Source of the DNA: an uncultured Gammaproteobacteria bacterium
GTDB lineage: Bacteria; Patescibacteriota; Patescibacteriia; UBA1558; GWA2-36-10
Assembly: GCA_964633905.1 (NCBI GenBank)
Contig: CAZWIT010000003.1
Location: 3,193-67,192, forward strand
Direction: 5' to 3'
Length of the DNA: 64,000 nt
Both the position numbers and the translations under genes were made by a program. The notes below the pieces were generated by a model. That model ran no database searches. It was given only the letters and a program-made list of their open reading frames with translations, and was not told the origin of the DNA. Shown here one piece after another: positions 11,010 through 63,710 of the stretch (position 1 is its first letter; every line of letters starts with the position of its first letter).

Positions 11010-11141
11010 ACCCTGTTAAATAGTCCCTGCTTAAGCTGGGACTCCCGCTAATAAAACTTTGTGAGTTTGTTTTAAATTTAGGGTAATAATTTTATTAATT
11101 TTTTATGATGAAAGCAATAAGATGGCGGGATTTAACAGGGT
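11010..11141. repeat. MITE-like element, copy 1, bounded by 12-bp perfect inverted termini ACCCTGTTAAAT / ATTTAACAGGGT
   Basis: Termini read directly. Internal GC hairpins AGTCCCTGCTTAAGCTGGGACT and CCCGC...GCGGG. Three more copies with identical termini are elsewhere in the window. Confidence 0.6.
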
Positions 11142-11170
11142 TAATTATAACATATTTTAGCCTCCATCGC

Positions 11171-11205
11171 CAATAACAAAACCCAGCTGCTCGAGAGCAG
11201 CTGGG
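11171..11205 (-). terminator. Intrinsic terminator downstream of efp
   Basis: A 10-bp perfect stem CCCAGCTGCT/AGCAGCTGGG with a CGAG loop, followed on the minus strand by a U-rich tract (rc of caataacaaaa). Confidence 0.5.
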
Positions 11206-11238
11206 AGTGTCCAGTTTTTATATTGTATATATTAAATT

Positions 11239-11796
11239 TTAAGCTCTAGAGACGTATTCACCACTTTCAGTATTGATAATTATCTGATCGTTGGCTTTGA
11301 CAAACATCGGCGTTCTAATTTCTAAACCGTTTTCAAGGGTTACTACCTTAGTAACTGCCCCGGCACTATTACCTTTTACTCCTTCTGGAGCAGATACAAC
11401 TGTAAAAGTCATCTTAGTTGGTAATTCAATGCTGATTGGCTTATTATTAAAAATCAAAACATCTACTTCTTGGCCTTCTTTTAAATACTTTACAGCATCG
11501 CCAAGATTATCTTTATCAAATTGAAATTGTTCAAAATCTTCATTATTCATGAAAAAATAATCATCCCCTTGTTGATAAAGAAAATTAGCCTTAGAGTGAG
11601 CCATATCAGCTAATTCTACAGTGTCTGAACCAGAAAAAGTTTTTTCTAGAGTATTACCGCTAATCAAATTTTTCAACTTAGTCTTAACAACTGCCCCGCC
11701 TCTGGCTACTTTAATGTGTTGATTAAAGACAACCTGATAAGGCTCATCATTAACGACTAAGACTTTGTTTAATTTTAAATCACTTAATGATCCCAT
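11239..11796 (-). CDS. efp: Translation elongation factor P
   Basis: 185 aa. The N-terminal KOW-like region and OB domains look typical of EF-P. Adjacent to a ribosomal protein operon. Confidence 0.8.
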   Translation of the reverse strand: MGSLSDLKLNKVLVVNDEPYQVVFNQHIKVARGGAVVKTKLKNLISGNTLEKTFSGSDTVELADMAHSKANFLYQQGDDYFFMNNEDFEQFQFDKDNLGDAVKYLKEGQEVDVLIFNNKPISIELPTKMTFTVVSAPEGVKGNSAGAVTKVVTLENGLEIRTPMFVKANDQIIINTESGEYVSRA

Positions 11797-11800
11797 AACT

Positions 11801-12019
11801 TTATCTGGCTACATAAGGTAAAATGGCCATAAAACGAGCGCGTTTAATGGCTTGAGCTAATTTACGTTGATGTTTAGAACAAACACCATTACGTCTTTTG
11901 GGAGTAATCTTGCCATAAGAAGAAATAAATCTCTGCAAGGACTGCCAATCTTTATAATCAATTTCATCAACATTATTTACACAAAAGAAACAATGTTTTT
12001 TATCTAATTTAACATGCAT
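11801..12019 (-). CDS. rpsR: 30S ribosomal protein S18
   Basis: 72 aa. KITPKRRNGVCSKHQRKLAQAIKRARFMAILPY is characteristic of S18. Confidence 0.85.
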   Translation of the reverse strand: MHVKLDKKHCFFCVNNVDEIDYKDWQSLQRFISSYGKITPKRRNGVCSKHQRKLAQAIKRARFMAILPYVAR

Positions 12020-12039
12020 AAAATTAAAATAATAAATTT

Positions 12040-12510
12040 TTAAAAAGGAATATCTTCTAAACTAATTTCCTCTTCGCCAATATTTGATCCACCATCCATA
12101 GGCGGTACTTGGCTATAATCATTAGAGCGCTTTGGAGCACTGCTAGCATTATCACTAAAATTACTAGCCCCGTTACCAGTACCCATCTTATCTAACATAA
12201 TCATATTGTCAGCAATGATTTCAGTGCGATAACGTTTGATGCCATTAGGATCATCCCAAGAACGGGTTTGCAAACGACCTTCAATATAAATCTTGCTACC
12301 CTTTTTGACGTATTGATTGACAATTTCAGCAAGTCTACGCCAAGCTACAATATTATGAAATTCAGCTTTTTCTTGCTTTTGGCCAGCTGCATCCTTCCAA
12401 GTAAAATTAGTAGCAATCGCAAAAGAAGTAACATTTTGACCACTGGGAGTTGTGCGCATCTCTGGATCACGAACAACGTTACCAATAATCATAACCTTGT
12501 TTAAATTCAT
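12040..12510 (-). CDS. ssb: Single-stranded DNA-binding protein
   Basis: OB-fold N-terminus MNLNKVMIIGNVVRDPEMR, a Gly/Asn-rich tail and a C-terminal DIPF motif. Confidence 0.85.
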   Translation of the reverse strand: MNLNKVMIIGNVVRDPEMRTTPSGQNVTSFAIATNFTWKDAAGQKQEKAEFHNIVAWRRLAEIVNQYVKKGSKIYIEGRLQTRSWDDPNGIKRYRTEIIADNMIMLDKMGTGNGASNFSDNASSAPKRSNDYSQVPPMDGGSNIGEEEISLEDIPF

Positions 12511-12520
12511 ATATTTACTA

Positions 12521-13045
12521 TTAATCTAAATTAGGTTCCTTAGTTAAAATTTCATCCAATTTTTTATCAATATCGTCCAAACTTAAAGTTGGCTGACCTT
12601 TGGACTCTTCTACTTTCTTAGTAGCTGAAGCAGTACTTCTGTGACTAGTTGTTCTAGCAGTAGTAGTAGTGGAGGTTTTTTTAGGACGACGAGTTAAGAC
12701 CTCTGGCTTACTAGCGTTCATTAACTTAGCAATTAAATTAGCAGGAGTTGGTTTATCCTTTTTTAATACTAAGTGACGTAAAATTTCTGGATTATGTTTT
12801 AAACTTAAATCCAGTTGTTTTAAATTAGCCTTATCTTCAGTCTCTAGGCTAAAATCTAAAAAAACATAAAAACCATGTTTTTGTGTTTTAATGGGATAAC
12901 TTAGTTTGCGACGACCCAAAAGGTGCCAATCGCCTACTATTTTGGCGCCGATATTATTCAAATATTCGGCTACTGTAGTCTGAATGCGTGCCTGATCATT
13001 TTCTGGCACCACTGGACTAACAATAAAAGATAGTTCGTAGTACAT
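12521..13045 (-). CDS. rpsF: 30S ribosomal protein S6 with a long charged C-terminal extension
   Basis: MYYELSFIVSP... is typical S6 over the first ~100 aa, followed by a Thr/Ser/Lys-rich tail. The rpsF-ssb-rpsR order is conserved. Confidence 0.8.
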   Translation of the reverse strand: MYYELSFIVSPVVPENDQARIQTTVAEYLNNIGAKIVGDWHLLGRRKLSYPIKTQKHGFYVFLDFSLETEDKANLKQLDLSLKHNPEILRHLVLKKDKPTPANLIAKLMNASKPEVLTRRPKKTSTTTTARTTSHRSTASATKKVEESKGQPTLSLDDIDKKLDEILTKEPNLD

Positions 13046-18239: not shown

Positions 18240-21200
18240 TTATGGATTAACTACTATCCAACCATCAAAAGCAATAGCATCTGCTCCTGTGTCGTCCCCT
18301 AAACCCCAACGATCAACTATATACATCTTAGGCTTAAAGCAGGCAGCATTTGGAGCTTGCCCAGTTACGCCCTTGGCTGCACAAGAGTGAGTTGGATCAT
18401 TAGTATATTGATAGTCATGATAAAAAATCTTATAACCCTGGCGACAAGCATTATCCAAACCACCAAAACCTGCAAGTCCAGCCGGCGTAGTGTCACAAGA
18501 ACCTACTGTGTCATCAGCGCATACATTAGGCATATTTTGATCAGATCTACAACTGAATAAAGCATTTTTATAGCGACCAGGAGCTGAAGAAAATCTACTA
18601 TCATCCCAATCCATCCTAATATTTACTACTGGCATATGATCTGGATGGGCATAAAAATATGATTTTACTGCTACGAACAAACTTTCTTTTGAGCTGATAA
18701 TACCATCTTGCTCTTCATTGATAGTAATACCACTTTGATAACCAACTATGCTTTGGTCAGCATTTCTAACAGCGCAAGCTGTTTCACCACAAACTTTCAA
18801 AGCGCGCGGCTTATAATCATCGCCAGCATAAGTATTTGGACTTAAGGTACTGTCATCAATAAATTCACTATCGTCACTGACTGCCACATAACTACCATTT
18901 ACTAAATTTAAATTATAAACATTAGCAAAAATTTTAGTCATACGGCTCCGAGCTTCAGGCCAGGCTGAAGCCAATGTAGATGAAGAAAAGAAAGTTACAG
19001 CCGAAGGTTGCTGTGGCCAAATTTGAGTTGGCGGAATTCTAGTAATAACTGCTTTATTAGGATTAAAGTAATCTAAGGCTGCGCCAAAATGAGTAAATAA
19101 ATTATCGCCCTGTCCAGATATACCAAAATAATAAACATCACGGCCGAGCTGATAAATAGCTCTATTATTAGATGAACGATAATAATAACTCAGCCAATCA
19201 TTTGGATCAGTGTCGTGTATTCTTAAAGTATCATTAGCTCTAGAATAGCGCCACCACATATCAGTACGCACCCAAGATTTATCACCAGCTGCGTCTAATT
19301 GCGTGATCAATCTACACTGCTGATAGCAATCACTGCCACAATCTATACCTTCTTTTTCTGGATCGTATGGCGTATCCGTGCGAATAATATTTCTTCTACT
19401 AGTAATTCTGCGATAAGAGGACAAATCCAAGAAGCCAACACTATCAGCTATTGTAATATCCTGACAAACTGCTCCAGCCTCATCGCCAATCGGAGTTGTA
19501 CAGCCCTCAACCTCTTCACCTAAACTAGAATTAACACCAGCGCCAACATCCAATACTATGCTACCATAAGTTTGATTTTGAGGACCAATAATGGTACAGG
19601 ATCCGGTACCGCCTGGCAAAGGATTAGGTATCGAATTAGGAATATTAGCTGTGACAATATTATAAATAATATCTAAACAACCAGATACACTAGCATAATT
19701 ATCATAAGACTCTTGATGAATGATGGCGCCTGGACATTCATAATCAACGCTTAATGTTCCTGTATTTTGAAATTCACCAAAATCACTACACCAATAAATC
19801 ATAGTACCGTTCTCATTATGGCTTTCACTACCAACTGCATTTACACAATTTTTAAAAGCACAATTCAAATCACCATTACAAGGCTGGGAAACATCAATAG
19901 CGCTATAATAAGGTTCATTACTCAAACAAATTGGTGTACTGTTATTAGTATTACTAGGAGGATTTCCTTCTGTGTGGCTACAATTTTCTTGCTGACAAAC
20001 TGTTACTACATTATTCACTCCTGCTGGAAAGGCTGGTTTTACATATATACCATGAGACATTGGACTACACCAACGATCTTGTTCTTTTTTATTATGACCA
20101 TTCCAACCACGCTGATCAAAACCACCAACATTAGTATTGTTAAAATCGCCATCCAAATATTGATTAAGCCAACTTTCATGCCAACCAGGCGCGCACTGCT
20201 CTAAATTATCAGCTACCCCATCTCCTGTTTCTTGTACGCCATAATTTTTATAAGTACCAATCGGGAAATACTCTTGACCAGGACGACTAGCAAAAGGCCA
20301 AACAATAGCACTTTCACCCCAATTACCATCCCTATTAATATAAGCATCATAAAAATATAGCTCTACTAACCCTGTACTCAAGGCATTGGCGTCAAAAATA
20401 TAATCAAAATTACTTAAAGGTAATACAGGTACCTTGCTACTAGCCGTTAAACCTAATGTCCTAGTGCTATCAAAATCTGAGGCTAAAAATAAACTACTAC
20501 CTTCACCAGTCCCGTATTCACCAAGGGAAGGACCCATGCCCAGCGGACTGCGCCAATTATCATTCCAATTAGTCTCAGTAAACAAAGCATTGGCTCCATT
20601 GCGATGCAACCAAGAAACACCTAAGCCAGTATAGGCTGATTGCACTTCATTTTGCCAGCCCATTTTTCTGACGCCATTAAATAACTGACCCGAAATGCCA
20701 TCAGTTACACTATCATCAGGACCATAAGCGCGTAATACTTCTGGATCAGTGTTTAAATAGCCAGCCACCAAAGTTGTCAAAGCTGGAGTATTATTAAAAG
20801 TACTATCCATATAGCGCAAATGGACTTTGGTGCCAGCTGGCACTTTAGCTAAAACTGAACAAAATTGCATATTGTATGGCGCCCCAGCAGTAAAAGTACT
20901 AACACAATAATATCTAGTTTCCGGCACTACATAATCTTCAGTAGCTGCACAGAATAAAGCATCTTGCCCAGTTGGATTATAGTAGCCAGCTTCTTGGTAA
21001 TTTTCATATAAACTATTTGTACCAGAAATTTGTTCAGCAGGATACCATTGGTTACAATAATAATCATTACCAGCATCTTTGACTAATTGATTATTATAAT
21101 CATAGCTTAGACAAATGCCTGACCAATTATTAATATTTTCTATTTTAGTATATTTTTCACAAAGACCATTTTGTTGCGAAACGCCATTATTGTCTACCGT

Positions 21201-24200
21201 GTCGCACTCGGCATTATTATTACAGGAGTAAACACTATTATTACCTGATACATCTGTCTTGCCAGCAGTACAAATTGCATTTGGTTGTGGCAATGACTTT
21301 GGATAATAACGCACTGTACTAGCACCATAAGTTACCTTACGATAAGACTGCTCACAACCATTAGGAGTCATAATCCGCGGATTATTTTGACTATTAGTAT
21401 CATTCTGACAATAATTAGCCGCACTATAAGACCTTAAAGCACCTTTATTTTCTTCGGCTGGAAAAATACTATGCGGGAAAGGCGCATCAATAGCAGCATA
21501 ACCTCTAGTACTTAAAGCCATGGTCGAAGTGCTAGTATCATTGATCTTAGGATTGAGCCAACAATAACCTGAATCACACTCACCTACATAAACACCTGCT
21601 ACAGCACCGACACTGCAAGCTAAACCATCATAAAGCACTGTGCCAGCTGCATTGCGACAAGCCGCAAAGAAATTACCATCATTAGTAACATTATCAAAAT
21701 AAGGGTAAGCAACTCTCACACTGCCATCATCAAAAGTATTAACCACTAAATCTTTTACTGGTAGCATATTAGGCAAAGAATAACCTAAATATTCTTCATC
21801 GCTCCACTGTAAATGCTCATTAGTACCTGTATCACGATTTTGATAATAAGCTGTACTCAAAACTGTCAAAGCAGGGTTTGGCTCTGCCCATTCGCTACAC
21901 TTAGTAACATTATTATTGCGGTCGTACTCAGTACAAGCTGATACGTCATCACAAACCGTTTTATAGCGATTGCTATCCCTATCCCAAACAGCTGTTGAAG
22001 AACGACAAGCTAACCATTCACTACATTGTCGATCTTTTTTAACTTTAACTAACATATTGGCATCTAGAGAACAAGAACCATCAATTTCTGGATCACAAAC
22101 AACTGGGCTGACTGCTTCTGCTCTAGCTAAATTTTCATCATAAGTTTTACCAGAATCATAGAGAGCTATAACTTCTTCATGCTTAGACTGCCAATAGTTG
22201 GCATCATAAAGTAAAATACAGCCTCCATTTTTATCAACACCGCCAGCGCAGGATTTTTGATCAATACTACTATTATTATAGTAATAATATTCCTGACAAG
22301 CTGGTGTCCAACGACCAGGTCCATCAAGGTCAGGATTTACATTATTAGTTGCCCCTTCACAGGCTAAACGACTATCAAAATCAAGGATATGACCATCATC
22401 AACATTACGACAAACACCATCTAAAGAGTTTGGATCAATACTAGGATCACAAGCTTCTGGATCTGAAGGGTCTCTTAAAGTGGTACACAAATTTTTATCT
22501 GCCGGACAATTAGCAACTAAATTATCAGTAGCTAAATCCCCAGCATCAAGACCAGGTGTAGCATTTGGCCAACAACCAACTGGATTAACAGTGAGTAAAG
22601 AATCTTTCCTAAAGAAGCCAGTCAAACCGTCAGCAGTTGCCCAAACACAATTATTAAATGCTAAATCATCCCCGTCTTCATCTACATCAGACGTATCAAA
22701 AACACCGTCACTATCACTACAGCCTAAAATATTATCTGTATTAAGCGAACTTGTTTTAAACCAACCAGAGTAGCTAATACCATTAACAATAATATTTGTT
22801 TGATAAGTACAAGTACCGCTACCTGGATCACGGAAATAGTAGATACCCTTGTCAGAAGAAAATTCCTCACAACCTAAGCCATCAGAATCACAAAGCGTAC
22901 TAGCGTATTGATCTGGATTATTAATTTTATAAACTGTATTCAAAAGATAGGGGTTGTTACGATCTGGCAAACCCAAAGCTTGACAACCTTTATAATCTTG
23001 GGAGCAATATTTAGTATTATCTGGCACTAAGTAAGCCAAATTATCAGCTGGCACAACTATTTGAGCTGCATTGCCAGCATTAAAAGTTTCTTCAAAAGGA
23101 TAAGTAGAATTTTGAGTATCAATCACTGCCGAACAACCAATAGCCTCCACTCGGCAGAGATTAGAAAATGATCTTAAATTAAATACTTTATTATTAGTAT
23201 CAGTATAACTCTGACAACCTAAATGGTAACCAACATAAGGGCTATCACAAGCAATTGGTGTTTCCCATGAGTTCCTTACCACTGAGATATTATCCCCTAC
23301 TTCTTTAAGTATAATATTATCGACATAAACACTAAAACCGGAACCAGCAACAATAACATTGAAATTCAAACGTAGATTATTTAAATCTAAACCAGTTGGA
23401 TCGGCTGTATAAATATAACTAAAGTAATGCCAATCGCCTGCTGAAATATTACGTAATTGACTATCATTAGGATCATAAAACACCTTAGGAGTAAGTATAC
23501 TAGGACTAGATAATAATACTTCTACACTATTTACTTGTATTTCACTCTTCATCCACCAACTTAACTTGTATTGCCGTGGACCTTCACCAATATTAGACAA
23601 AGGACGATAAAATGCCGCGCTATTGTCATTAGCATTTATTTTGATTGAATGACCATTATTTTCCAAAGCTTCTGAAGATAAGCTAACCACATCACTACTA
23701 CTAGCCCATGGGGCAAAAGTACCTTGCTCAAAATTATTAGAAAATATTTCGCGGACATTATTAGCAGTATTGCCAGTATAAAGATGACAACCATTAAATT
23801 CGGCACTACAAGCAATGCTTAAACTAGGAATTGTTTTATAAACTTCGCCAGAAGCTGTGCGTCGATATTCATGACAATCACTACTTGCATAAATTACCCG
23901 ATCTTGCAAACGATAAGATGGGCGACCATCAGTGTCAAAAAATTGACGACAATTTGGATTTACATCAGCATCACTACAAGTAGCAACTGGATATTGTGGC
24001 GCTGTATTATCCAAACAAGTTTCACCACCCGGAGCAATATTAGTACAAGGAGCTAAAGAGCCATTAGCCTCGGGAGCAGCATTAGTAACAAGTATCTGCC
24101 AAGTACGAATTTGATAACCAGCTGTATCTGACCCTTCCCAAGTGTAATAAGTAGTTCCTAAACTTTCAGCCACACATTGACGAATATAAGTAAAGTATTC

Positions 24201-27113
24201 TTTACCTTCACCGCCTTGAGCTACTTCGTCTAAATTTGTAAATTCTTCACAACCAATAGCAGATGCTGGACAAGCCTGGGCTGTGTTAGGTATAAAATTA
24301 TAATATTGAGTATCCGTATCACCCTCCATCACACTAAAAATACTAGGTGTTTCTGCAAAGCTAGCATAACCAACACATTCGGCTGGACATAAGTCACTAG
24401 GATTCACTACCGCCGGAATCATTGTTCCGCCCTCAGTTGGTGTATAGCCCTGACAACCTAATTCATCGGCAGTACACATAAATCGACTATCGTTCATGGT
24501 AATTTTACCGCCTGCGCCATAATCACTATAAGGAGAGGCAATTCTATCTACACTACTAACTATCTCTACCTTAATATCATCAAACCAAATTAAATCTGTA
24601 CCAGAACTAGCTAATAAATTTAATAAAGCTCCACTAGTATATTGGTTGGTAGTAAAAATACAACTTGATCTTTGAAATTCAACACCATTAGGAGTAAAAC
24701 GTAAATCAGCATCTTCATCGTGAGGAACATCACAAAATCTTGTGTCACCTAAAGGTGGAGGTACTGGACCAGCTGCGTTAGTATTACCAACAGCATCATC
24801 GCAATTACCAGTATTATCACACATAATCAAAGATATTCTAGCAGCGGGACTAGTAGCATTAGCCACATGTTGAGCAGCTGCAGCTGATATAGTATAGGTA
24901 GTATTTGGTAATAAATAAATTTTCTGTTGAAAACGCTGTGAATCTGGATGAGACGGATTGCCATATGTATAGCCATTAGCTACCTTGCCAGTAACGCTAT
25001 CATATTCAACACCATCACTAGGATTACCGCCATTATCAAGCCAACCGTCTGGCATGTTGTCTGCATTAGTATCAGCCAAGCTACCATTTGCAACTACATT
25101 AATACCTCTGTCAGCTGCCATCACTATATATTCATGACAACCAGCTTCTGACGAAGGACAATCTTGGGCCTGACGATTTAAAAATAAATCATTATCGTCT
25201 GTATTTATATCTTGCAAGACCCAATTATTTTCCTGGTTCATTTCTTGACTATAGCGCTTACAGCCAGCCTGATCAGCAGTACAATAACTTAAAGATTGCT
25301 CTAGATAGGATTCCTGACCAATTTCTGGATTATCAAAAGTCAAACAACCAGAATAAATATCACCTTGATTACATTGATCAGCTCCTAGGCGCCAGATATT
25401 TTCTGACTTAGTACAATAACCATATTGGTTATCTAGACAATTACCATTTTCATCTTCACGCAAACAAACTTGAGCATCAGCACAATATTGCTGACGAGTA
25501 TCAGTTTCTGGCGAATCAAGTAAAGGCGAATACACATAGGCCGAACAATAAGCAGCTGGTGCTTTTAATACCCAATTAGGATCAACTAAATGATAAAATG
25601 GATTATGTTGCTCACCATCAACAATAAAATCAGGACTTACTGGAAATGGACATTTTTCATCTTCAAAACAATCCATTGCCTGACGTAAAGTAACTGGGGT
25701 AATCAAATCACTACGCTGACTAGCCATTTCCCATCCGACTGGTATGATATTAGCCTTACGTAATTTTACTAAATTATTATAGCAGAACGCTCCCTTATAA
25801 CACTCCTGATTAGTGCGCAAGGTATCACTAGGATTAATAAACTGCCAAGCGCCATTTAAAATACCATTTTCTACTGCTTCTTTTACTGTTAATTTATTAC
25901 TAATTGCCTGCAAAAGATCAGTAGACATTACACAATTGTCTGGCTTACGAAACTGAGCTTCTTCTGGGCAAATTGAAAAATCATTAAGAAAACTATAAGA
26001 CTCAATCGGACTAATTTTTATATTTTTAAAATCTGTAAAAACATCAGCTCCGCGTGGATTCCTAATATCACCACCGCCTCGTAATTGATCCAATAAACTA
26101 TCCCTAAAATCATCATCTTTGCCAAAAATGTCAGCCATGGACCACATGCCGCCCTTAATCCATTTTTGTAATAATTTAGAGCTTAAAGTATTGGCAAAAT
26201 TACTAGCCGCATCTTTCATAATATCAGTTAATTTGCGATTAGTAGCCGCTTCTTTACGAGAAGCAATACGATTAGCTGAGTCTCGTACAGCCGCCGTCCA
26301 TTCCTCTTCAGTCATTTTTAAGATAACGGCACAATGTGTTTTAACTTCTAATGTAATAGCCGTTGCTTTATCTTTAAAACCCCTACATTCTTCTTCGCCC
26401 ATCTTAAAAACATCAACCGAAACCGCTTTACGATTATTAATCTCCCCTTGTAATTTAGCAAAAACACCTAGATCGCTTTGCTCTAAAGAGTAGGCTTTAA
26501 AATAATCCTCTATACCCTGCACTCCTTGCTGAGGGCTAAGTTGAAATTTAACTAACTCCGCAAAATTTTGATTGCCAAAACTTTCCCATCTTTTTTTAAC
26601 ATTAGTCCAATTACAACGACTAGCATAAGTTGTCTGAGGCGGCGCTTGTTCATTAATTAAAGAAAGGGTCAAGGTTAGTTTTACTTCTAAACTAGGTTCA
26701 CAAAGATCCAAGCCTAAATCAGCAAAATAAGTATTACTCAACTGACCAATAAATTCACCAACCGCTGCTTTTTGAGCACGATCCAAACTTTTAGTTATAC
26801 TTTCTGTTCTAAATAATGGCACATTGCCTGTACCGCCAGTAGCTATTTCAGTTGCAACATTATAAGCCAAATCATTCATGAACATTTCTACAGTACGATT
26901 AGCCAGATCTGCTCCTACCCAGCCCTGCACTTTACTCCAAGCATCATTAATCTTATCAGCAACATCACGCCTAGTCTGCGGTAGAGATTGTATAATATAA
27001 GCCATTAACGGACCGACCATTTGAGCATTTGCCGACCTTACCTGCGCTAATATAGCAGTGCCCATCAAAATCATCAATAAAGCAGCAATAATAATTTTTT
27101 TGTAGCGATACAT
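18240..27113 (-). CDS. Giant (2957 aa) secreted Cys-rich surface protein with jelly-roll/CBM-like modules; putative adhesin of the T4SS-like apparatus
   Basis: N-terminal signal peptide MYRYKKIIIAALLMILMGTAILAQVRSANA. Well over 100 Cys. Segments resemble CBM_4_9/laminin-G jelly rolls (...YKLSWWMKSE...VYVDNIILKEV). It sits 20 bp from both flanking genes in one operon. Confidence 0.6.
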   Translation of the reverse strand: MYRYKKIIIAALLMILMGTAILAQVRSANAQMVGPLMAYIIQSLPQTRRDVADKINDAWSKVQGWVGADLANRTVEMFMNDLAYNVATEIATGGTGNVPLFRTESITKSLDRAQKAAVGEFIGQLSNTYFADLGLDLCEPSLEVKLTLTLSLINEQAPPQTTYASRCNWTNVKKRWESFGNQNFAELVKFQLSPQQGVQGIEDYFKAYSLEQSDLGVFAKLQGEINNRKAVSVDVFKMGEEECRGFKDKATAITLEVKTHCAVILKMTEEEWTAAVRDSANRIASRKEAATNRKLTDIMKDAASNFANTLSSKLLQKWIKGGMWSMADIFGKDDDFRDSLLDQLRGGGDIRNPRGADVFTDFKNIKISPIESYSFLNDFSICPEEAQFRKPDNCVMSTDLLQAISNKLTVKEAVENGILNGAWQFINPSDTLRTNQECYKGAFCYNNLVKLRKANIIPVGWEMASQRSDLITPVTLRQAMDCFEDEKCPFPVSPDFIVDGEQHNPFYHLVDPNWVLKAPAAYCSAYVYSPLLDSPETDTRQQYCADAQVCLREDENGNCLDNQYGYCTKSENIWRLGADQCNQGDIYSGCLTFDNPEIGQESYLEQSLSYCTADQAGCKRYSQEMNQENNWVLQDINTDDNDLFLNRQAQDCPSSEAGCHEYIVMAADRGINVVANGSLADTNADNMPDGWLDNGGNPSDGVEYDSVTGKVANGYTYGNPSHPDSQRFQQKIYLLPNTTYTISAAAAQHVANATSPAARISLIMCDNTGNCDDAVGNTNAAGPVPPPLGDTRFCDVPHDEDADLRFTPNGVEFQRSSCIFTTNQYTSGALLNLLASSGTDLIWFDDIKVEIVSSVDRIASPYSDYGAGGKITMNDSRFMCTADELGCQGYTPTEGGTMIPAVVNPSDLCPAECVGYASFAETPSIFSVMEGDTDTQYYNFIPNTAQACPASAIGCEEFTNLDEVAQGGEGKEYFTYIRQCVAESLGTTYYTWEGSDTAGYQIRTWQILVTNAAPEANGSLAPCTNIAPGGETCLDNTAPQYPVATCSDADVNPNCRQFFDTDGRPSYRLQDRVIYASSDCHEYRRTASGEVYKTIPSLSIACSAEFNGCHLYTGNTANNVREIFSNNFEQGTFAPWASSSDVVSLSSEALENNGHSIKINANDNSAAFYRPLSNIGEGPRQYKLSWWMKSEIQVNSVEVLLSSPSILTPKVFYDPNDSQLRNISAGDWHYFSYIYTADPTGLDLNNLRLNFNVIVAGSGFSVYVDNIILKEVGDNISVVRNSWETPIACDSPYVGYHLGCQSYTDTNNKVFNLRSFSNLCRVEAIGCSAVIDTQNSTYPFEETFNAGNAAQIVVPADNLAYLVPDNTKYCSQDYKGCQALGLPDRNNPYLLNTVYKINNPDQYASTLCDSDGLGCEEFSSDKGIYYFRDPGSGTCTYQTNIIVNGISYSGWFKTSSLNTDNILGCSDSDGVFDTSDVDEDGDDLAFNNCVWATADGLTGFFRKDSLLTVNPVGCWPNATPGLDAGDLATDNLVANCPADKNLCTTLRDPSDPEACDPSIDPNSLDGVCRNVDDGHILDFDSRLACEGATNNVNPDLDGPGRWTPACQEYYYYNNSSIDQKSCAGGVDKNGGCILLYDANYWQSKHEEVIALYDSGKTYDENLARAEAVSPVVCDPEIDGSCSLDANMLVKVKKDRQCSEWLACRSSTAVWDRDSNRYKTVCDDVSACTEYDRNNNVTKCSEWAEPNPALTVLSTAYYQNRDTGTNEHLQWSDEEYLGYSLPNMLPVKDLVVNTFDDGSVRVAYPYFDNVTNDGNFFAACRNAAGTVLYDGLACSVGAVAGVYVGECDSGYCWLNPKINDTSTSTMALSTRGYAAIDAPFPHSIFPAEENKGALRSYSAANYCQNDTNSQNNPRIMTPNGCEQSYRKVTYGASTVRYYPKSLPQPNAICTAGKTDVSGNNSVYSCNNNAECDTVDNNGVSQQNGLCEKYTKIENINNWSGICLSYDYNNQLVKDAGNDYYCNQWYPAEQISGTNSLYENYQEAGYYNPTGQDALFCAATEDYVVPETRYYCVSTFTAGAPYNMQFCSVLAKVPAGTKVHLRYMDSTFNNTPALTTLVAGYLNTDPEVLRAYGPDDSVTDGISGQLFNGVRKMGWQNEVQSAYTGLGVSWLHRNGANALFTETNWNDNWRSPLGMGPSLGEYGTGEGSSLFLASDFDSTRTLGLTASSKVPVLPLSNFDYIFDANALSTGLVELYFYDAYINRDGNWGESAIVWPFASRPGQEYFPIGTYKNYGVQETGDGVADNLEQCAPGWHESWLNQYLDGDFNNTNVGGFDQRGWNGHNKKEQDRWCSPMSHGIYVKPAFPAGVNNVVTVCQQENCSHTEGNPPSNTNNSTPICLSNEPYYSAIDVSQPCNGDLNCAFKNCVNAVGSESHNENGTMIYWCSDFGEFQNTGTLSVDYECPGAIIHQESYDNYASVSGCLDIIYNIVTANIPNSIPNPLPGGTGSCTIIGPQNQTYGSIVLDVGAGVNSSLGEEVEGCTTPIGDEAGAVCQDITIADSVGFLDLSSYRRITSRRNIIRTDTPYDPEKEGIDCGSDCYQQCRLITQLDAAGDKSWVRTDMWWRYSRANDTLRIHDTDPNDWLSYYYRSSNNRAIYQLGRDVYYFGISGQGDNLFTHFGAALDYFNPNKAVITRIPPTQIWPQQPSAVTFFSSSTLASAWPEARSRMTKIFANVYNLNLVNGSYVAVSDDSEFIDDSTLSPNTYAGDDYKPRALKVCGETACAVRNADQSIVGYQSGITINEEQDGIISSKESLFVAVKSYFYAHPDHMPVVNIRMDWDDSRFSSAPGRYKNALFSCRSDQNMPNVCADDTVGSCDTTPAGLAGFGGLDNACRQGYKIFYHDYQYTNDPTHSCAAKGVTGQAPNAACFKPKMYIVDRWGLGDDTGADAIAFDGWIVVNP

Positions 27114-30069: not shown

Positions 30070-30204
30070 ACCCTGTTAAATAAATTTAATTAATAAAAAG
30101 TAAAAAAATATTTTATCAAATATACTTTAATTATAACACATAAACCTACACTTATTAAATTTAATTTTTTAAAGTCATACTTTAAAAAATTATTTAACAG
30201 GGTA
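30070..30204. repeat. MITE-like element, copy 2 (AT-rich interior), with the same 12-bp inverted termini
   Basis: ACCCTGTTAAAT at 30070-30081 and ATTTAACAGGGT at 30193-30204. The left terminus lies 5 bp from the MFS start codon. Confidence 0.6.
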
Positions 30205-38950: not shown

Positions 38951-38980
38951 GCCGCCGGACTAGGCTTCGGCGGCTTTTTT
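38951..38980 (+). terminator. Intrinsic terminator after the 163-aa ORF
   Basis: Stem GCCGCCG/CGGCGGC with a 10-nt loop, followed by TTTTTT. Confidence 0.7.
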
Positions 38981-39247: not shown

Positions 39248-39354
39248 ATATCAATAATTTAACCAGCAAAATTATACTACTATAAAACTCGCTAGTAAAG
39301 ACCGCAGACCCAATTAGCTTGCCTAAAAATATAAATAACAAAAAACCTCCTGGC

Positions 39355-39894
39355 TTAGGAAGTTTTTTGATTAAGATCAATTTCTAAATAATCAAATGGT
39401 TCTCCAAAATTATACCAATTATCCAAACGACGAATAAATGCCACTGCTGGCAACTTTTGCAAACGCTGGCTAAGGCCAGTCGAAACTCGAACATGCATAC
39501 TAATCTTATCAAAACCTTTTTGTTTAGCAATTTTTATCAGTTCATGAAAAACTAAGTTGGCCAAACCTAAGCCCCGATGCCCAATTTTAATAGCTATTGA
39601 ATCTATATATAGAGCCTTATCGTCTAAAACAAAATCCTTATCGTACTTTATTAAATCTGGGTACTCATCATTATGTGGCACAGACGCAAGGTAGCCAACA
39701 ATTTGCTCATTATTAAAAATTAATAAATGGATACCTTTTTTATTTGAAATAATTGTTTTTATTTCCTCTGGACTAGACTGCATCAGCGGCGGAAAAACTT
39801 CCCTTTCTACAGCCAATATTTGCTCTAGGCTAATTTCACTAAAATCATGCAATTGTTTAATACTGTCAATAGTATTTATCTTTTTTTTAATCAT
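39355..39894 (-). CDS. GNAT family N-acetyltransferase
   Basis: IGHRGLGLANLVFHELIKIAKQKGFDKISMHV is the acetyl-CoA binding motif R-x-x-G-x-G/A. Confidence 0.65.
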   Translation of the reverse strand: MIKKKINTIDSIKQLHDFSEISLEQILAVEREVFPPLMQSSPEEIKTIISNKKGIHLLIFNNEQIVGYLASVPHNDEYPDLIKYDKDFVLDDKALYIDSIAIKIGHRGLGLANLVFHELIKIAKQKGFDKISMHVRVSTGLSQRLQKLPAVAFIRRLDNWYNFGEPFDYLEIDLNQKTS

Positions 39895-41543: not shown

Positions 41544-41613
41544 CTATATAAAATAATTTGGTGGACCGTACCCCGTCTTTGGCGGGGCGACCTGTTCTAT
41601 TTTTTATTTCATT

Positions 41614-41690
41614 TGGTGGACCGTGGGAGAGTCGAACTCCCGACCTCTGCAATGCGAATGCAGCGCTCTAGCCAACTGAGCTAACGGCCC
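41614..41690 (-). tRNA. tRNA-Ala (anticodon CGC)
   Basis: RC reads GGGCCGTTAGCTCAGTTGGCTAGAGCGCTGCATTCGCATTGCAGAGGTCGGGAGTTCGACTCTCCCACGGTCCACCA. The G3:U70 Ala identity pair is present. Confidence 0.9.
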
Positions 41691-41695
41691 TAAAA

Positions 41696-41772
41696 TGGTC
41701 GGGGTGAGAGGACTTGAACCTCCGACCTCGTCGTCCCGAACGACGCGCGCTAGCCAACTGCGCCACACCCCG
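41696..41772 (-). tRNA. tRNA-Pro (anticodon CGG)
   Basis: RC reads CGGGGTGTGGCGCAGTTGGCTAGCGCGCGTCGTTCGGGACGACGAGGTCGGAGGTTCAAGTCCTCTCACCCCGACCA. Anticodon loop TTCGGGA. Confidence 0.85.
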
Positions 41773-41921
41773 CCTAAAACTATCTAATTCTAGCAAAAAT
41801 AATAGTTTAACTCAATAAAAAAACCACCCTTTTAGTGATTCACTATAATATAATAAACAAACAATTTTGTAAATAAATATCTTAGTCGATAGCACAAAGA
41901 ATTGTGCTACCTAAAAAACAT

Positions 41922-42128
41922 TTATTTCTTAGCTAATTTGCCAAGACTGGCCAAAACATAAATAGCAGATAAGCCAACTAAACCGTAGACAATACGAGCT
42001 AGTAATGACATTTCTCCTAAAAGAGTAGCCACTAAATCAAAATTAAAAGCCGCTACTAGGCCCCAATTTAATCCGCCGACAATAAGCAGGATAAAAAATA
42101 GCCAGTCTAAACCACTTAAATTTTTCAT
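41922..42128 (-). CDS. DUF378-family small membrane protein
   Basis: 68 aa. GLNWGLVAAFNFDLVATLLGE...RIVYGLVGLSAIY matches the DUF378 pattern. Confidence 0.5.
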   Translation of the reverse strand: MKNLSGLDWLFFILLIVGGLNWGLVAAFNFDLVATLLGEMSLLARIVYGLVGLSAIYVLASLGKLAKK

Positions 42129-42208
42129 AGTTTTTTTCTTTATGTTAATTAATAAAGAGCTTTAATATTTATATTATAACACAAAATAGCTCTAATGAAA
42201 ATTAAGCT

Positions 42209-42664
42209 TTATTTTACAAATAAACCAATAACTTTATCCCAAACGCTTTTTACCATTAAAATTGCTCCCAATACCATCAAGATTGAGCCAACAGCCAAAC
42301 GCAAATCAATTTTTTCACTTAAAAAAATGCCTGCCAAAATAACAACAAAAACTAAACTTAAACGATCCAAGGCTTGCACTTGACCAGCGTCAGCCTTAGA
42401 TAAGGCATAAAAATAAAACAGCCATGATATCACGCCAGCTAAAGCTCCTAATACAATAAATAACAAAGCATTACCATTAATAGTGTTTAATTTAGCAAAC
42501 TTGCCTGTTAAAGCCGAAAAAACTATCAGGAATAAAGACATGACTATAACTCTAACTGTAGTAGCTAAATTAGAATCAATGTTAGCTAAACCCTTTTTAC
42601 TAAAAATAGTAACTAAAGCGGCAAAAAAGGCTGATAAAATACCAAAGATGATCCAAGTAGGCAT
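42209..42664 (-). CDS. Small DMT/EamA-like transporter (4-5 TM)
   Basis: 151 aa. The hydrophobic helix pattern resembles a single EamA domain. Confidence 0.45.
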   Translation of the reverse strand: MPTWIIFGILSAFFAALVTIFSKKGLANIDSNLATTVRVIVMSLFLIVFSALTGKFAKLNTINGNALLFIVLGALAGVISWLFYFYALSKADAGQVQALDRLSLVFVVILAGIFLSEKIDLRLAVGSILMVLGAILMVKSVWDKVIGLFVK

Positions 42665-42683
42665 AAATTTATAATAAGTTTTA

Positions 42684-44210
42684 TTAAAAAATATTTTTTA
42701 AGACTCTAGCTGTCAAATACTCCACGGGCGCATGATTGTCAGTAAAAACCATGGCCTTAGAAAAATCAAATTTATTTAAGTCAATTTCTTTAGTAAGTAG
42801 CGGCAAAATAATATCTTTATCTTCTTTACTAAGATCTAAATTTTGCCAATCAATTTTTTTATCACTATTATATCCCAAAAAAACTATATTTTGTGTACCG
42901 GTATTTTCTGGAGATTCAGCTGCAAAAAAATAACTATTAGGAAAAACTGACTGGAAAGTTTTTATTTCTGACAAAATAAATTTCGATTCCTCGCCTGCTA
43001 AATCACCGATTAAATTAGCCATAAAAATACCATCGCTACTCATCTTATTTTTTGCAATTTCAAAAAACTCCTTAGTGGTAAAATGAGCCGGCACTGATAA
43101 ACCATTATAAACATCACTAAATATAAAATCATATTCTTTATCAGCATCATATAAAAACCTACGACCATCATCAGTAAAATTATGTAATCGATCAGATTTA
43201 ACTAGGCCAAAATATTTTTGAGCCAGTTCAAATAAAGACGCCTCTACTTCTGAAACATCCACTTCTGCCTTAGGTAAATCGCGCAACATTATTTTTGGTA
43301 TCGAATAAGCCCCGCCGCCTATCACTAAAGTATTTATAATATCTGTTTTTAAAAATTTATGCAAAAGATAATATTTTGAATAATCAAAAACCAAATCATC
43401 AGAGTCTAAAAAAGTAGCACTAGAACTTGCTCTATCCTGCATCAAAACCCTAACTTTCTTTCCCTGGTATTCCCTATCAAAAACGGAATATTTGGCATAT
43501 AAGCCATCATAACTATAAATAATATTATTATTCTCTACGCCTACTAACATTATAACTGAGGCAATCAACAAAAGATTCAAAATAAATATTTTAAAAAGCG
43601 TTTTTTTGGCTAAGCCTAATTTAATGAGCGGTAATAAACCTAATAATATCAATGCTATAGCTACTCCTAATATTATTTGATTAATACCAAAATGAGGAAT
43701 TAAGAAAAAACCAGTAAATAAACTACCAAAGATACTACCTAAGGTAGACCAAAAAAATATTTCTCCGCTAATGCTACCTATGCCCTTGTCCGGAAAATAT
43801 TTTTCCTGCAGCTTGATAGTAAAGGGCGACAAAGTACCTAATATCAGGCTAGGTATAAAAAATAAAATTACTGAAAAAATCAAAGGACCCGAGATCATTG
43901 GTAGTTTGTAGCCGATGTAGGGTAAGAGAAATAATGTTAATAAGTGCAAAACAATCACGCTAAAACCACTAAGCAAAATAATCGAATAAAAAAACTTTTC
44001 TGTCGGATATTTATCGGCTAATTTTCCACCAAAAAAATAACCTAAACTCAAAGCCGCTAAAACTACTCCAATCACACTAGACACTGTATAAATCGTACTG
44101 CCATAATATGGAGACAAGATACGAGTCGCAACCACTTCAATAACCAAGACGCAAGCTCCAGTTAAAAATACTACAAAAGGCAAAACGTATTTTTTTAAAT
44201 TAATCATCAA
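42684..44210 (-). CDS. Fused polytopic membrane domain plus spermidine/spermine synthase-like domain
   Basis: About 7 N-terminal TM helices, then LVIGGGAYSIPKIM...DFIFSDVY, an aminopropyltransferase-like Rossmann fold. Confidence 0.55.
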   Translation of the reverse strand: MMINLKKYVLPFVVFLTGACVLVIEVVATRILSPYYGSTIYTVSSVIGVVLAALSLGYFFGGKLADKYPTEKFFYSIILLSGFSVIVLHLLTLFLLPYIGYKLPMISGPLIFSVILFFIPSLILGTLSPFTIKLQEKYFPDKGIGSISGEIFFWSTLGSIFGSLFTGFFLIPHFGINQIILGVAIALILLGLLPLIKLGLAKKTLFKIFILNLLLIASVIMLVGVENNNIIYSYDGLYAKYSVFDREYQGKKVRVLMQDRASSSATFLDSDDLVFDYSKYYLLHKFLKTDIINTLVIGGGAYSIPKIMLRDLPKAEVDVSEVEASLFELAQKYFGLVKSDRLHNFTDDGRRFLYDADKEYDFIFSDVYNGLSVPAHFTTKEFFEIAKNKMSSDGIFMANLIGDLAGEESKFILSEIKTFQSVFPNSYFFAAESPENTGTQNIVFLGYNSDKKIDWQNLDLSKEDKDIILPLLTKEIDLNKFDFSKAMVFTDNHAPVEYLTARVLKNIF

Positions 44211-44235
44211 CTATTTTATTTAATATTAATAAATC

Positions 44236-44311
44236 TGGAGCAGGTAACGGGACTCGAACCCGTGACCTCTTCCTTGGGAAGGAAGCATTCTACCAACTAA
44301 ACTATACCTGC
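44236..44311 (-). tRNA. tRNA-Gly (anticodon CCC)
   Basis: RC reads GCAGGTATAGTTTAGTTGGTAGAATGCTTCCTTCCCAAGGAAGAGGTCACGGGTTCGAGTCCCGTTACCTGCTCCA. Confidence 0.85.
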
Positions 44312-44366
44312 TGAATTAACTCCGTATATAAATAAACTTTTCTGTAATAAAAAATTAGCATAAGTA

Positions 44367-44443
44367 TGGTGGGTATAGATGGACTTGAACCATCGACCCC
44401 GACTTTATAAGAGTCGTGCTCTAACCGACTGAGCTATATACCC
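44367..44443 (-). tRNA. tRNA with anticodon UAU (Ile, AUA-decoding type)
   Basis: RC reads GGGTATATAGCTCAGTCGGTTAGAGCACGACTCTTATAAAGTCGGGGTCGATGGTTCAAGTCCATCTATACCCACCA. Clean cloverleaf with anticodon loop CTTATAA. Confidence 0.75.
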
Positions 44444-45708: not shown

Positions 45709-45840
45709 ACCCTGTTAAATCCCATACTAGATTTATTAAGAAATAAATAAATTAAAATAAACACAAATATTACTTTTAAAATAAAGGAAAGTCTTTCTTA
45801 TGGGAAGCTAAACGCCAAGCGTTTAGCTATTTAACAGGGT
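45709..45840. repeat. MITE-like element, copy 3, in the divergent promoter region between the DHH paralog and infB
   Basis: ACCCTGTTAAAT at 45709-45720 and ATTTAACAGGGT at 45829-45840. An internal perfect hairpin AGCTAAACGCCAAGCGTTTAGCT abuts the right terminus. Confidence 0.6.
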
Positions 45841-45947
45841 TGACTTTTTTGCCTAAATTTAGTAGAGTTAGAGCAAATTTAAAGCTAATTAGGCAGAAAT
45901 CAAGCTTTAATTAAGCTCAAAAAGCTAATTCTTAACCTAAACAAATA

Positions 45948-62448: not shown

Positions 62449-62639
62449 ATTTTTACCTTTCTGATGGTAAAAGACAGGCTAATTTTAAGTTGATTTGACA
62501 AATTTCAGCCTAAAAATATTTTAAGCTCAAATCTGCCAACCAACCTGACGACAAAACTGCTTTTACCCTAATTAAAATTTTATAAATATTATTTTTAAAG
62601 ACCCTGGGCCTAATATAAAGCTACAGGGTCTTATCAAAA

Positions 62640-62996
62640 TTATTCTTTAGTATCAACTTCCTCAATCGGATCTTTATCGATTTGAGCTTCTAGAATCAAA
62701 ACTTCTTCTAGATCTTTTCTTTCTTTTTTAGCAAACTTCAAACCCAAAGTTTTGATTAATTTACTAAAACGTTTTTCATCTTCTCTTTCTAAATAACGTA
62801 AGAGATGGTGACGTAAAGATACTTTAGCCAGTAAACCCCTGCGAGAAGAAAAATCCTTTTTATTCTCTTTTAAATGCTTGGTCAAATCCTTGATTTCTTC
62901 GGTTAGAATGGCTACCTGCACTTCTGGAGAACCAGTGTCATTTTTATGAGTTTTGAATTTCTCAATAATCCTCTGTTTCTTTTTTTTATCTAACAT
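62640..62996 (-). CDS. rpsO: 30S ribosomal protein S15 with a ~30-aa acidic C-terminal extension
   Basis: DTGSPEVQVAILTEEI...SRRGLLAKVSLRHHLLRYL is the S15 core. The rpsO-pnp order is conserved. Confidence 0.8.
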   Translation of the reverse strand: MLDKKKKQRIIEKFKTHKNDTGSPEVQVAILTEEIKDLTKHLKENKKDFSSRRGLLAKVSLRHHLLRYLEREDEKRFSKLIKTLGLKFAKKERKDLEEVLILEAQIDKDPIEEVDTKE

Positions 62997-63148
62997 TTTA
63001 CTTTTCCTTTCCCCTAAATCCTAGCCTAGGCTCTAAGTTAGTTAGTCAGCCTAAACCAAGTGTTTGGGATAAAAATAATTATTAAAGTAATAACAGACTA
63101 ACATTTTTAAAGAAAAAAGTCAATTCTAGAGCTTAAAATACTATAATA

Positions 63149-63177
63149 TTGACAAAATAAGGTAAATATGATATAAT
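63149..63177 (+). promoter_or_regulatory. Perfect consensus sigma70 promoter TTGACA-17-TATAAT driving the high-GC minigene
   Basis: TTGACA at 63149-63154, a 17-bp spacer, TATAAT at 63172-63177. A 7-bp hairpin TTAGGAG-CTCT-CTCCTAA lies at 63192-63209. Confidence 0.6.
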
Positions 63178-63241
63178 ATAAATATTAACTATTAGGAGCT
63201 CTCTCCTAATAAATTATTCACCCCGTCGAAAGCGAGTTGTC

Positions 63242-63415
63242 ATGTTCGATCGTTTCGCCAACAACTACGGCTACGGCGCGCAGCACGACATGGAGCGGGG
63301 AATGCTGGACTCCTGGTCCAGGATGCCCTTGCCCATCTTGATCGCCGTGACTGTCGCCTTCGTCGCTGGCCTGGGCCTGTGGCTCTGCCACGAGCTCCAT
63401 CTCTTCGGGATGTGA
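63242..63415 (+). CDS. Small (57 aa) hydrophobic peptide encoded in a high-GC patch; a foreign-looking minigene
   Basis: MFDRFANNYGYGAQHDMERGMLDSWSRMPLPILIAVTVAFVAGLGLWLCHELHLFGM. One predicted TM helix. Codons are GC3-rich (GCC, GTC, CTG, GGC), unlike the rest of the window. Flanked by a consensus promoter and an intrinsic terminator. The RBS is weak. Confidence 0.4.
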   Translation: MFDRFANNYGYGAQHDMERGMLDSWSRMPLPILIAVTVAFVAGLGLWLCHELHLFGM

Positions 63416-63447
63416 GCGTCTCCGGTCGTAAAACTCCACTGCGGTGG

Positions 63448-63476
63448 AGAGAGAGCCTGACCAGCTCTCTCTTTTT
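63448..63476 (+). terminator. Intrinsic terminator of the minigene
   Basis: Stem GAGAGAGC/GCTCTCTC with a CTGACCA loop, followed by TTTTTT. Confidence 0.75.
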
Positions 63477-63655
63477 TATTTAAAAACACTACTCCTACAG
63501 TCATCCTGAATTTATTTCCCACGGCCCGCCAAAGGCGGAGCCTCGCAGAATGCGGGGCGAGCAGGATCTCCAAATATAAATATAGCTATTTGGAGATGCC
63601 GAATCCGCCAGCCGGCGGATCGGCATGACGGTAGTGTCGTTTTATGATAAAATTA

Positions 63656-63710
63656 ACCCTGTTAAATAGTCCCGCCTTGCGGGACTGCCGCGAGCGGCAT
63701 TTAACAGGGT
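63656..63710. repeat. MITE-like element, copy 4 (minimal 55-bp form), directly abutting the recombinase start codon
   Basis: ACCCTGTTAAAT at 63656-63667 and ATTTAACAGGGT at 63699-63710. Internal hairpins AGTCCCGCCTTGCGGGACT and GCCGCGAGCGGC. Confidence 0.6.

Follow-up and report, generated by a model that had tools for sequence, protein, structure and literature searches.

We describe a large family of small mobile DNA elements that was not found in the databases and literature we searched; its members are bounded by identical 12-bp inverted termini and fold into a Y. Four copies, numbered 1 to 4, lie in a stretch of 64,000 nucleotides of patescibacterial DNA (contig CAZWIT010000003.1 of assembly GCA_964633905.1, positions 3,193 to 67,192 of the forward strand), referred to below as the window. 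We have high confidence that the family is real, mobile and very widespread. A preliminary description of the window, made from the letters alone, had reported the four copies and proposed that they are recombinase-recognised or mobilisable units.

Occurrence and distribution of the elements

The 12-mer ACCCTGTTAAAT occurs exactly eight times in the window, as four inverted pairs, compared with a chance expectation of 0.04 for 64 kb, and this count was reached by none of 100 shuffles of the window; no further copies with one or two mismatches are present there. Pairs of termini with a gap of 85-115 nt were also in excess, three being found in the window and none expected. The four copies with identical inverted termini are thus beyond chance, and the coordinates first given for copies 1, 3 and 4 hold, whereas copy 2 ends at 30203 and is 134 bp long, not 135 (Table 1). 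Similarly, the reported gene distances of 24 nt for copy 1 and 6 nt for copy 4 (to the ATG at 63717) are correct, whereas copy 2 is separated from the start codon of a major facilitator superfamily (MFS) gene by 4 nt (AGGGT AAAA ATG) rather than 5.

Each species was represented by a single genome in a scan for paired termini with 85-115 nt between them; the loci compared with the window are designated by L-numbers (L001, L121, L202, etc.). The same termini were found at at least 112 stretches in other genomes, nearly all belonging to Patescibacteria (candidate phyla radiation, CPR) of many classes, with Paceibacterota, Nomura-, Moran-, Kaiser-, Buchanan-, Doudna- and Saccharibacteria among the matches listed. 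Some matches lie in genuine non-CPR contexts, namely a Bacteroidetes metagenome-assembled genome (MAG) of 28-31% G+C, where the neighbours were judged by eye to be an outer-membrane barrel-like protein and a peptidase T-like open reading frame (ORF), a Desulfobacteraceae contig of 49% G+C, where the neighbour is a 1044-aa ORF resembling an RND pump, and two more deltaproteobacterial contigs. A multi-copy, mobilisable family had been suspected before, correctly; its reach across many Patescibacteria lineages and other phyla is beyond what the preliminary description could see. The 0.88 Mb of loci contain 161 terminus pairs, and unpaired termini are almost absent. It should be noted that the deltaproteobacterial copies at L008 7378-7513 and L056 2835-2965 have repeats (ACAGGAT; ACACAGAT/ACACGGAT) 2 nt outside each terminus and have in common an upstream GAAAACACGAAAAAG stretch.

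A phage or plasmid origin was considered and rejected: the element termini gave no matches in the 2.9 million viral contigs of IMG/VR, searched with two gap ranges, and none in 72,556 plasmids. A systematic search of 118 loci (0.88 Mb) showed no kb-sized parent element with these termini, and an apparent 3-kb unit at L030 is really two ordinary elements, with one-base mismatches, on either side of lepA. Rfam 15 at gathering score, applied to the window and 16 loci, returned tRNAs and one tmRNA only, and E-value scans of two elements gave only chance-level matches. A full-text literature search for the 12-mer, in DNA or RNA letters, retrieved a single unrelated primer, and the element family is not described in the literature searched on CPR repeats, miniature inverted-repeat transposable elements (MITEs), hairpins and tyrosine recombinases. 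DNA uptake sequences, parS, the CodY box, the IHF site, the LexA box and gix/hix were considered and rejected on the grounds that the 12-mers occur only in pairs or that spacing or orientation does not fit.

The Y-shaped fold

All four copies, on either strand, fold into a three-way junction composed of two hairpins and a 12-bp stem, in which the two termini of the copy are paired with each other (z-scores -4.3 to -7.1), and the internal GC hairpins seen earlier are real. Copy 4 reads, in order, stem, AGTCCCGC-CTT-GCGGGACT, GCCGC-GA-GCGGC, stem, with zero unpaired bases at the junction. Copies 1 and 4 form one subfamily (AGTCCC..GGGACT, then CCGC..GCGG) and differ in the loop of the second hairpin, which is ~77 nt larger in copy 1; the suggestion that copy 1 is an expanded copy 4, built on a minimal core of ~55 bp, is therefore well founded, and a core of 55-60 bp was found again in other genomes. 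The interiors of copies 2 and 3 are unrelated in sequence, yet the architecture is identical.

This fold is characteristic of the family: 78 of 131 unique elements from all sources form a perfect two-branch junction without an unpaired base, compared with 0 of 393 with shuffled interiors. Elements are 46-222 bp long, and the length distribution peaks at 55-60 and 125-139. The termini ACCCTGTTAAAT / ATTTAACAGGGT are invariant, whereas the interiors vary yet nearly always give two hairpins, so that a single strand, be it DNA or RNA, adopts the Y-shaped junction. There are also sister terminus families (ACCCCGTTAGAA, ACCCTATGGAGTAAAA, ACCCCGCACTAA and ACCCCGTAGTGA), in which both arms have changed together and the outer ACCC...GGGT is retained. 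In an alignment of 41 sequences of the largest subfamily, a CAGGG box, ATAAG and a small hairpin are conserved within an otherwise free loop. The commonest pairing of flanks, TTC-element-AAA, amounts to a systematic C·A mismatch at position 13, and the outward flanks on either side read R-A-A-T. An outward sigma-70 promoter in the long loop was considered and discarded, as the candidate -35/-10 pairs, examined by eye, are spaced variably (12-17 nt) and have a poor -10.

In Nomurabacteria-type loci (L009, L012, L020, L023, L024, L026, L077, L092, L093 and others), the elements are bordered on both sides by hairpins of ~39 nt that have a conserved loop, TAGTCGCTTCACTCC, and the start codon follows directly after the outer hairpin. 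These flanking hairpins may be a second repeat layer or an extended terminus.

Mobility and the insertion rule

The elements are mobile. Comparison of empty and filled sites in relatives revealed presence/absence polymorphism at three of the four window loci (copies 1, 2 and 4); for copy 3, only the same strain is on record. The copy 1 site is empty in a strain with identical elongation factor P (EF-P; L002) and filled in L001, the empty allele being ...TATGTTATAAT AA AGAGCG and the filled one ...TATGTTATAAT TA(132 bp)GA AGAGCG. The copy 2 site is empty in L119 and L120 (MFS protein 96% identical) and in L122 (72%), where a spacer of only 7 nt (TAAAAATAAAATG) separates the co-directional Sua5 and MFS genes; the filled allele in the window is AAAAAT TT(134 bp)A AAAATG. 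In L121 (MFS protein 86% identical), an independent insertion is found 16 nt upstream of the copy 2 site and carries the Sua5 reading frame into the element. Elements also occur nested within the hairpin loops of other copies (L046, L098, L112) and as tandem copies, which are always exactly 2 nt apart (L011, L032, L040, L047, L108). The Bacteroidetes MAG (L011 1843-2396) has 3.5 tandem copies with AA between them, one of which has ~200 bp inserted in its long hairpin.

Target-site duplication was not detected, either in the five empty/filled comparisons or as an excess of flanking direct repeats over shuffled pairs; identical 2-nt flanks are restricted to a sub-class of elements. The view that these are not conventional transposase-dependent MITEs is thus upheld. 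The insertion target is ...A(A/T)AAT^A... (the caret marks the insertion point), and the inserted DNA consists of T-N plus the element, with 0-1 nt at the other side: in 28 of 295 flanks, the last base of A[AT]AAT is followed by exactly 2 nt and then the terminus, compared with ~5 at other offsets. The copies had been called promoter-proximal throughout; they do lie beside gene starts, but their location is better described as A/T-rich ...AAT^A sites in very short intergenic spacers. A general rule of insertion beside a terminus-like pseudo-site was unsupported except for the tandem copies.

Position relative to gene starts

Both neighbours could be called for 101 elements, of which 73 lie between co-directional, 16 between divergent and 12 between convergent genes; two further elements lie inside ORFs. 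In 36 of 140 elements, the distance from terminus to start codon is exactly 2 nt, and in another 12 it is 4 nt. The downstream genes, recognised by eye from N-terminal sequences, are varied housekeeping genes, e.g., those for ribosomal proteins, tRNA synthetases, DnaK, SecA, ParB and UvrA. In the largest subfamily, one hairpin has the stem AAGATTTG/CAAATCTT; it lies toward the start codon in 39 elements and on the other side in none. The terminus puts AACAGGGT 2-6 nt upstream of the ATG, and the earlier proposal that it supplies AGGG just upstream of the start codon is borne out. G-U pairs are slightly commoner on the sense strand (163 vs. 106, p=0.014).

These positions suggest how insertions so close to genes could survive. 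The element would be co-transcribed with the downstream gene, and insertions would be tolerated because the terminus serves as a replacement ribosome-binding region; a single orientation, with AACAGGGT ahead of the ATG, would be permitted. The tiny intergenic spacers of these genomes would then explain why the insertions that persist are found so near to start codons, only a few nucleotides away.

A recurrent insertion point at a Xer-like recombinase gene

Copy 4 adjoins a gene of the XerA/XerD-like tyrosine-recombinase family, as was noted at the outset, and the promoter of this gene has received insertions repeatedly in independent lineages. The window ends within the gene; the full-length product, taken from L004 (5173-5961, minus strand), has 262 aa and belongs to the Xer/integrase family. 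Its upstream motif, GTGTCGTTTTATGATAAAAT, occurs in the window only at this gene, and in relatives the recombinase-like genes have the same motif, 6 nt and then the ATG; the sequence suggests a leaderless mRNA. At the copy 4 point, the empty allele is GTGTCGTTTTATGATAAAAT^ATAGCC ATG, and the window has ...TAAAAT^TA(55 bp)AAAAAC ATG.

We also assembled a recombinase-centred set of 79 metagenomic loci around homologues (330 kb in total). Only two elements with this terminus type are present in the set, and both are located 6 nt upstream of a recombinase ATG. Both (L123 and L127) belong to the GC-rich minimal subfamily of copy 4 and sit at the same nucleotide, and one of them has its hairpins in reverse order. 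In the tree, the window, L123 and L127 fall in separate lineages, and nearer relatives are empty at this point (L202, 82% identity; L203, 63%; L204, 57%; and L147); therefore, one nucleotide, located downstream of the -10 element and ahead of the recombinase-like ATG, has been hit by at least three independent insertions. When sister types are included, a terminus is found within -130 to +30 of 6 of 32 recombinase-like gene starts, compared with 3 of 118 others (p=0.003), and some recombinase-like genes now have a start codon or an N-terminal extension supplied by the element. L075 shows the same rpsO-xer arrangement with a canonical xer gene; three elements are found in the 800 bp upstream of this gene, and its ATG is 6 nt from one of them.

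Two further observations concern the surroundings of this gene. A conserved motif, TGTGTCGTTTTATGnTAAAAT, is located at 63634-63653 in the window and upstream of the homologues in L124-L147 and L202-L204; its TTATGTTAAAAT part exceeds the E. coli XerD arm by one base, and the motif is perhaps an operator. The region from rpsO to the recombinase-like gene (63200-63650) is an island of 50-58% G+C in a genome of ~30% G+C; it contains several GC-rich hairpins, a terminator-like hairpin and an ORF of 57 aa (63242-63415) whose C-terminal half is hydrophobic. In L202 (82% identical), the same slot holds a different GC-rich ORF of 161 aa between shared flanking hairpins, and the island looks like a variable slot for foreign DNA beside the recombinase gene.

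Proposed explanation and alternatives

With somewhat more confidence than doubt, we infer that the elements are a non-autonomous foldback family with invariant ends and a Y fold that is mobilised in trans, possibly by the Xer-like protein. A host-encoded protein would recognise the conserved terminus or stem, and the Xer-like tyrosine-recombinase-family protein is the best candidate, since insertions recur in the promoter of its own gene, a hotspot; its substrate, judged by analogy with integron attC and REP/RAYT, would be single-stranded DNA in folded or melted form. A more far-reaching version, which we regard as doubtful, is that the elements and the Xer-like protein make up an unrecognised mobile system of Patescibacteria, in which a host recombinase with an altered active site pastes Y-folded single-stranded DNA; the 12-bp stem would be recognised and the element would be pasted where A/T-rich DNA is melted, for example in promoter bubbles and hairpin loops.

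The recombinase as mobilising factor is the weakest step, and several observations weigh against the proposed explanation. We aligned 22 homologues, with the canonical L075 and L063 proteins as reference, and found that the family of the window recombinase retains Arg-II and Tyr; however, it has GLKVS where the canonical proteins have GLRVSE (Lys for Arg-I), lacks the KGxK beta-hairpin segment and has QxLRH for the canonical HxLRH (Gln for His-II). Scores of the recombinase-like protein against NCBIfam XerA/XerD are far under the cut-off. Replacement of Arg-I by Lys abolishes cleavage in Cre and XerD. The window recombinase may thus be inactive or altered, a protein that binds rather than cuts, and of the recombinase link proposed earlier the adjacency stands while a catalytic role is doubtful. 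A recombinase homologue is present in just 2 of 113 element-centred loci, most copies being far from such a gene, and the hotspot could reflect a preference for TGnTAAAAT^A or a melted promoter bubble, not the protein. In addition, the inserted boundaries vary by 1-3 nt across the five empty/filled comparisons, and two deltaproteobacterial copies with flanking direct repeats of 7-8 bp do not fit the rule of no duplication. Selection at the RNA level is possible, and here the strand test (163 vs. 106 G-U pairs) is weak.

The apparent catalytic degeneracy of the neighbouring recombinase is one reason to consider that the elements are non-autonomous derivatives of an unseen insertion sequence, an explanation that we rate as possible and clearly short of probable. 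The transposase (DDE, or HUH/Y1 as in IS200/IS605 and REP/RAYT) would be encoded elsewhere or in some genomes, and the recombinase hotspot would be a mere target-sequence preference. MITE superfamilies typically combine conserved termini and diverse interiors; a single-strand mechanism fits the lack of duplication and the insertion into hairpin loops, beside stems and just after -10 elements; and the cross-phylum spread suits a travelling transposase. However, no long element and almost no unpaired termini were seen in the ~0.88 Mb of loci, and the viral contigs and plasmids gave no matches. Moreover, the end hairpins of the IS200/IS605 type are conserved in sequence, unlike the internal hairpins of the elements, and the GTAG motif of the REP type is absent. 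It seems improbable, on a different line, that the elements are mainly functional cis-acting RNAs or protein-binding modules of 5' untranslated regions, with spread being secondary; the stem could hide or expose the AGGG/start region, or the element could be a processing site that leaves a short leader, or the operator of a global regulator. The strict orientation relative to the downstream gene (39:0), the fixed 2-4 nt to the ATG, the slight sense-strand excess of G-U pairs and the maintenance of GC-rich hairpins in AT-rich genomes all speak for such a function, as does the persistence of the CAGGG box, ATAAG and small hairpin in the variable loop of the largest subfamily, where the box could pair with the left terminus in an alternative structure. 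On the other hand, there is no Rfam match in the window, the 16 loci and the two elements scanned, the minimal form has no unpaired conserved nucleotides for ligand binding, and the fold is equally good on the two strands. The housekeeping genes served have no relation to one another, the same genes in close relatives manage without an element, and copy 3, between divergent promoters, may not be transcribed.

The least credible explanation would have the elements serve in dimer resolution or cassette capture, as dif-like Xer sites or integron-type attC sites; it is already contradicted by the anatomy of the elements. Its attraction is that TGTTAAAT, the outer 8 nt of the terminus, equals the outer 8 nt of the E. 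coli XerD arm, that GTTAAAT/ATTTAAC fits the attC core consensus GTTRRRY/RYYYAAC, and that lengths of 55-140 bp are like those of attC sites; the joined ends of tandem copies also form a 26-bp palindrome (12+2+12), and the recombinase gene has a variable high-GC cargo region next to it. However, the arms of a single element are back to back and 31-111 bp apart, compared with 6-8 bp in dif, so that no element has two 11-bp arms around a 6-8-bp centre; the 8/11 match to the XerD arm, to which the preliminary description pointed, is mere resemblance. A dimer-resolution site present in many copies per genome would be harmful. As to attC, the core motifs run in the opposite order, with GTT.. 5' and ..AAC 3', and the copies are 15-19 kb apart amid housekeeping genes rather than in an array.

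Comparison with known systems

The nearest description is that of small non-autonomous foldback repeats, from which the family is set apart by its Y fold, invariant ends across many Patescibacteria lineages and a few other phyla, lack of duplication, fixed orientation to start codons and the Xer-like hotspot. With DDE-type MITEs, the elements have in common perfect terminal inverted repeats (12 bp), small size (46-222 bp), lack of coding capacity and multiple copies; the difference is that they have no target-site duplication. Correia/NEMIS of Neisseria, ERIC and RUP are likewise short, non-coding, multi-copy intergenic repeats with terminal inverted repeats and a long hairpin, are polymorphic among strains, have length variants produced by internal indels, lie near gene starts and can supply expression signals. 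However, these repeats duplicate their target, which is usually TA, have interior sequence in common and do not extend beyond a genus or family, whereas our elements lack duplication, have identical termini across phyla and unrelated interiors with a Y fold, and keep a fixed orientation to genes.

REP/REPIN sequences are also dispersed multi-copy extragenic hairpin repeats without target duplication and are thought to be moved in trans by RAYT, a single-copy, host-resident Y1 HUH enzyme whose own gene is flanked by the repeats. Here, the termini are ACCCTG.. without GTAG, the linked gene is of the tyrosine-recombinase (Xer) family with the element only 5' of it, and the elements are three-way junctions, not simple hairpins or doublets; no RAYT gene was seen in the loci, whose ORFs were not subjected to a systematic domain scan. 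Integron attC sites are imperfect palindromes of 55-140 bp, free in sequence save for short ends that the element ends resemble (GTTRRRY/RYYYAAC); they are bound by a tyrosine recombinase, IntI, as folded single strands, and their central part can branch. In contrast, the elements read 5'-..GTTAAAT ... ATTTAAC..-3', opposite to RYYYAAC ... GTTRRRY, and have a perfect 12-bp stem with one box and flanks that do not fit an R box; there is no R/L pair, there are no extrahelical bases, and copies are dispersed singly among housekeeping genes without a cassette array or attI.

The Xer/dif system, integrating elements that use Xer and pdif modules resemble the family in the XerD-arm match and the association with a Xer-family gene. 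However, there is no 28-bp site (two ~11-bp arms with a 6-8-bp centre), four copies occur in 64 kb, and insertion takes place at many A/T-rich sites, not at dif. Fungal mitochondrial double-hairpin elements have two adjacent small hairpins, and parvovirus terminal repeats have a stem-closed hairpin pair of T or Y shape in either hairpin order; neither the hosts nor the replication contexts are related, sequence similarity is absent, and the likeness is structural only.

Other features of the window

The coordinates of the copies and of the recombinase-like gene are given in Table 1. The window is chromosomal DNA of ~34% G+C that carries genes for EF-P, S6-SSB-S18, infB, S15 and six tRNAs, together with a block resembling a type IV secretion system (T4SS), and homologues are labelled Patescibacteria/Parcubacteria. 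Copy 1 is immediately preceded by TGTTATAAT, an extended -10-like sequence. Copy 3 has TG..TG as flanks and is separated by 103 nt from the DHH gene and by 107 nt from infB; its right flank forms a promoter-like TTGACT-17 nt-TAGAGT directed toward infB. At 45841-45875, the copy 3 terminus and its flank, GGGT^TGACTTTTTTGCCTAAATTTAGTAGAGT (here the caret marks the junction), together make a TTGACT -35-like hexamer toward infB, and a GGGGT^TGAC junction is also found in sister-family copies (L016, L071, L105).

Table 1. Element copies in the window and features of the adjoining recombinase-like gene
Feature	Position	Strand	Description	Setting
Copy 1	11010-11141	-	132 bp; 12-bp terminal stem; short hairpin AGTCCC..GGGACT and long-loop hairpin CCCGC..GCGGG	24 nt upstream of first ORF of T4SS-like block (9645-10985, minus strand)
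Copy 2	30070-30203	-	134 bp; AT-rich interior	Between stop of Sua5/YrdC gene (30210) and MFS ATG (30065)
Copy 3	45709-45840		132 bp	Divergent region, DHH-family gene / infB
Copy 4	63656-63710	+	55-bp minimal form with GC-rich hairpins	Between -10 element and ATG (63717) of recombinase-like gene
Upstream motif GTGTCGTTTTATGATAAAAT	63634-63653	+	TGnTAAAAT extended -10	Recurrent insertion point
Recombinase-like gene, 5' part	63717-64000	+	XerA/XerD-like tyrosine-recombinase family	Cut by window end

Elsewhere in the window, a 2957-aa ORF (18240-27113, minus strand) is followed by ORFs of 856 and 411 aa, both without a Pfam match on record in L001. The six tRNA genes (38223-44443) are Ser-CGA, Leu-CAG, Ala-CGC, Pro-CGG, Gly-CCC and Ile-UAU, and the first anticodon position is always C or U.

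Implications

The genomes of Patescibacteria (CPR) are tiny and compact, and the literature searched contained no report of a repeat family of this kind in them. The same 12-base ends across classes and phyla imply that the recognising protein is very conserved or that horizontal spread is frequent; such spread would be among organisms living attached to other cells. Near-identical strains differ in these insertions, which sit 2-6 nt from the start codons of genes for ribosomal proteins, tRNA synthetases, chaperones and secretion. The insertions are therefore likely to make expression vary from strain to strain, and the elements are a useful marker for population genomics. Because target duplication is missing, the elements fold into a Y and a Xer-like hotspot exists, the transposition mechanism is directly testable and may uncover a novel role for the tyrosine-recombinase fold. 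If the doubtful version with a pasting host recombinase were true, the elements would represent a third system of a domesticated enzyme plus dispersed hairpins, beside REP/RAYT and attC/IntI, whose by-product would be the rewritten 5' leaders of many housekeeping genes.

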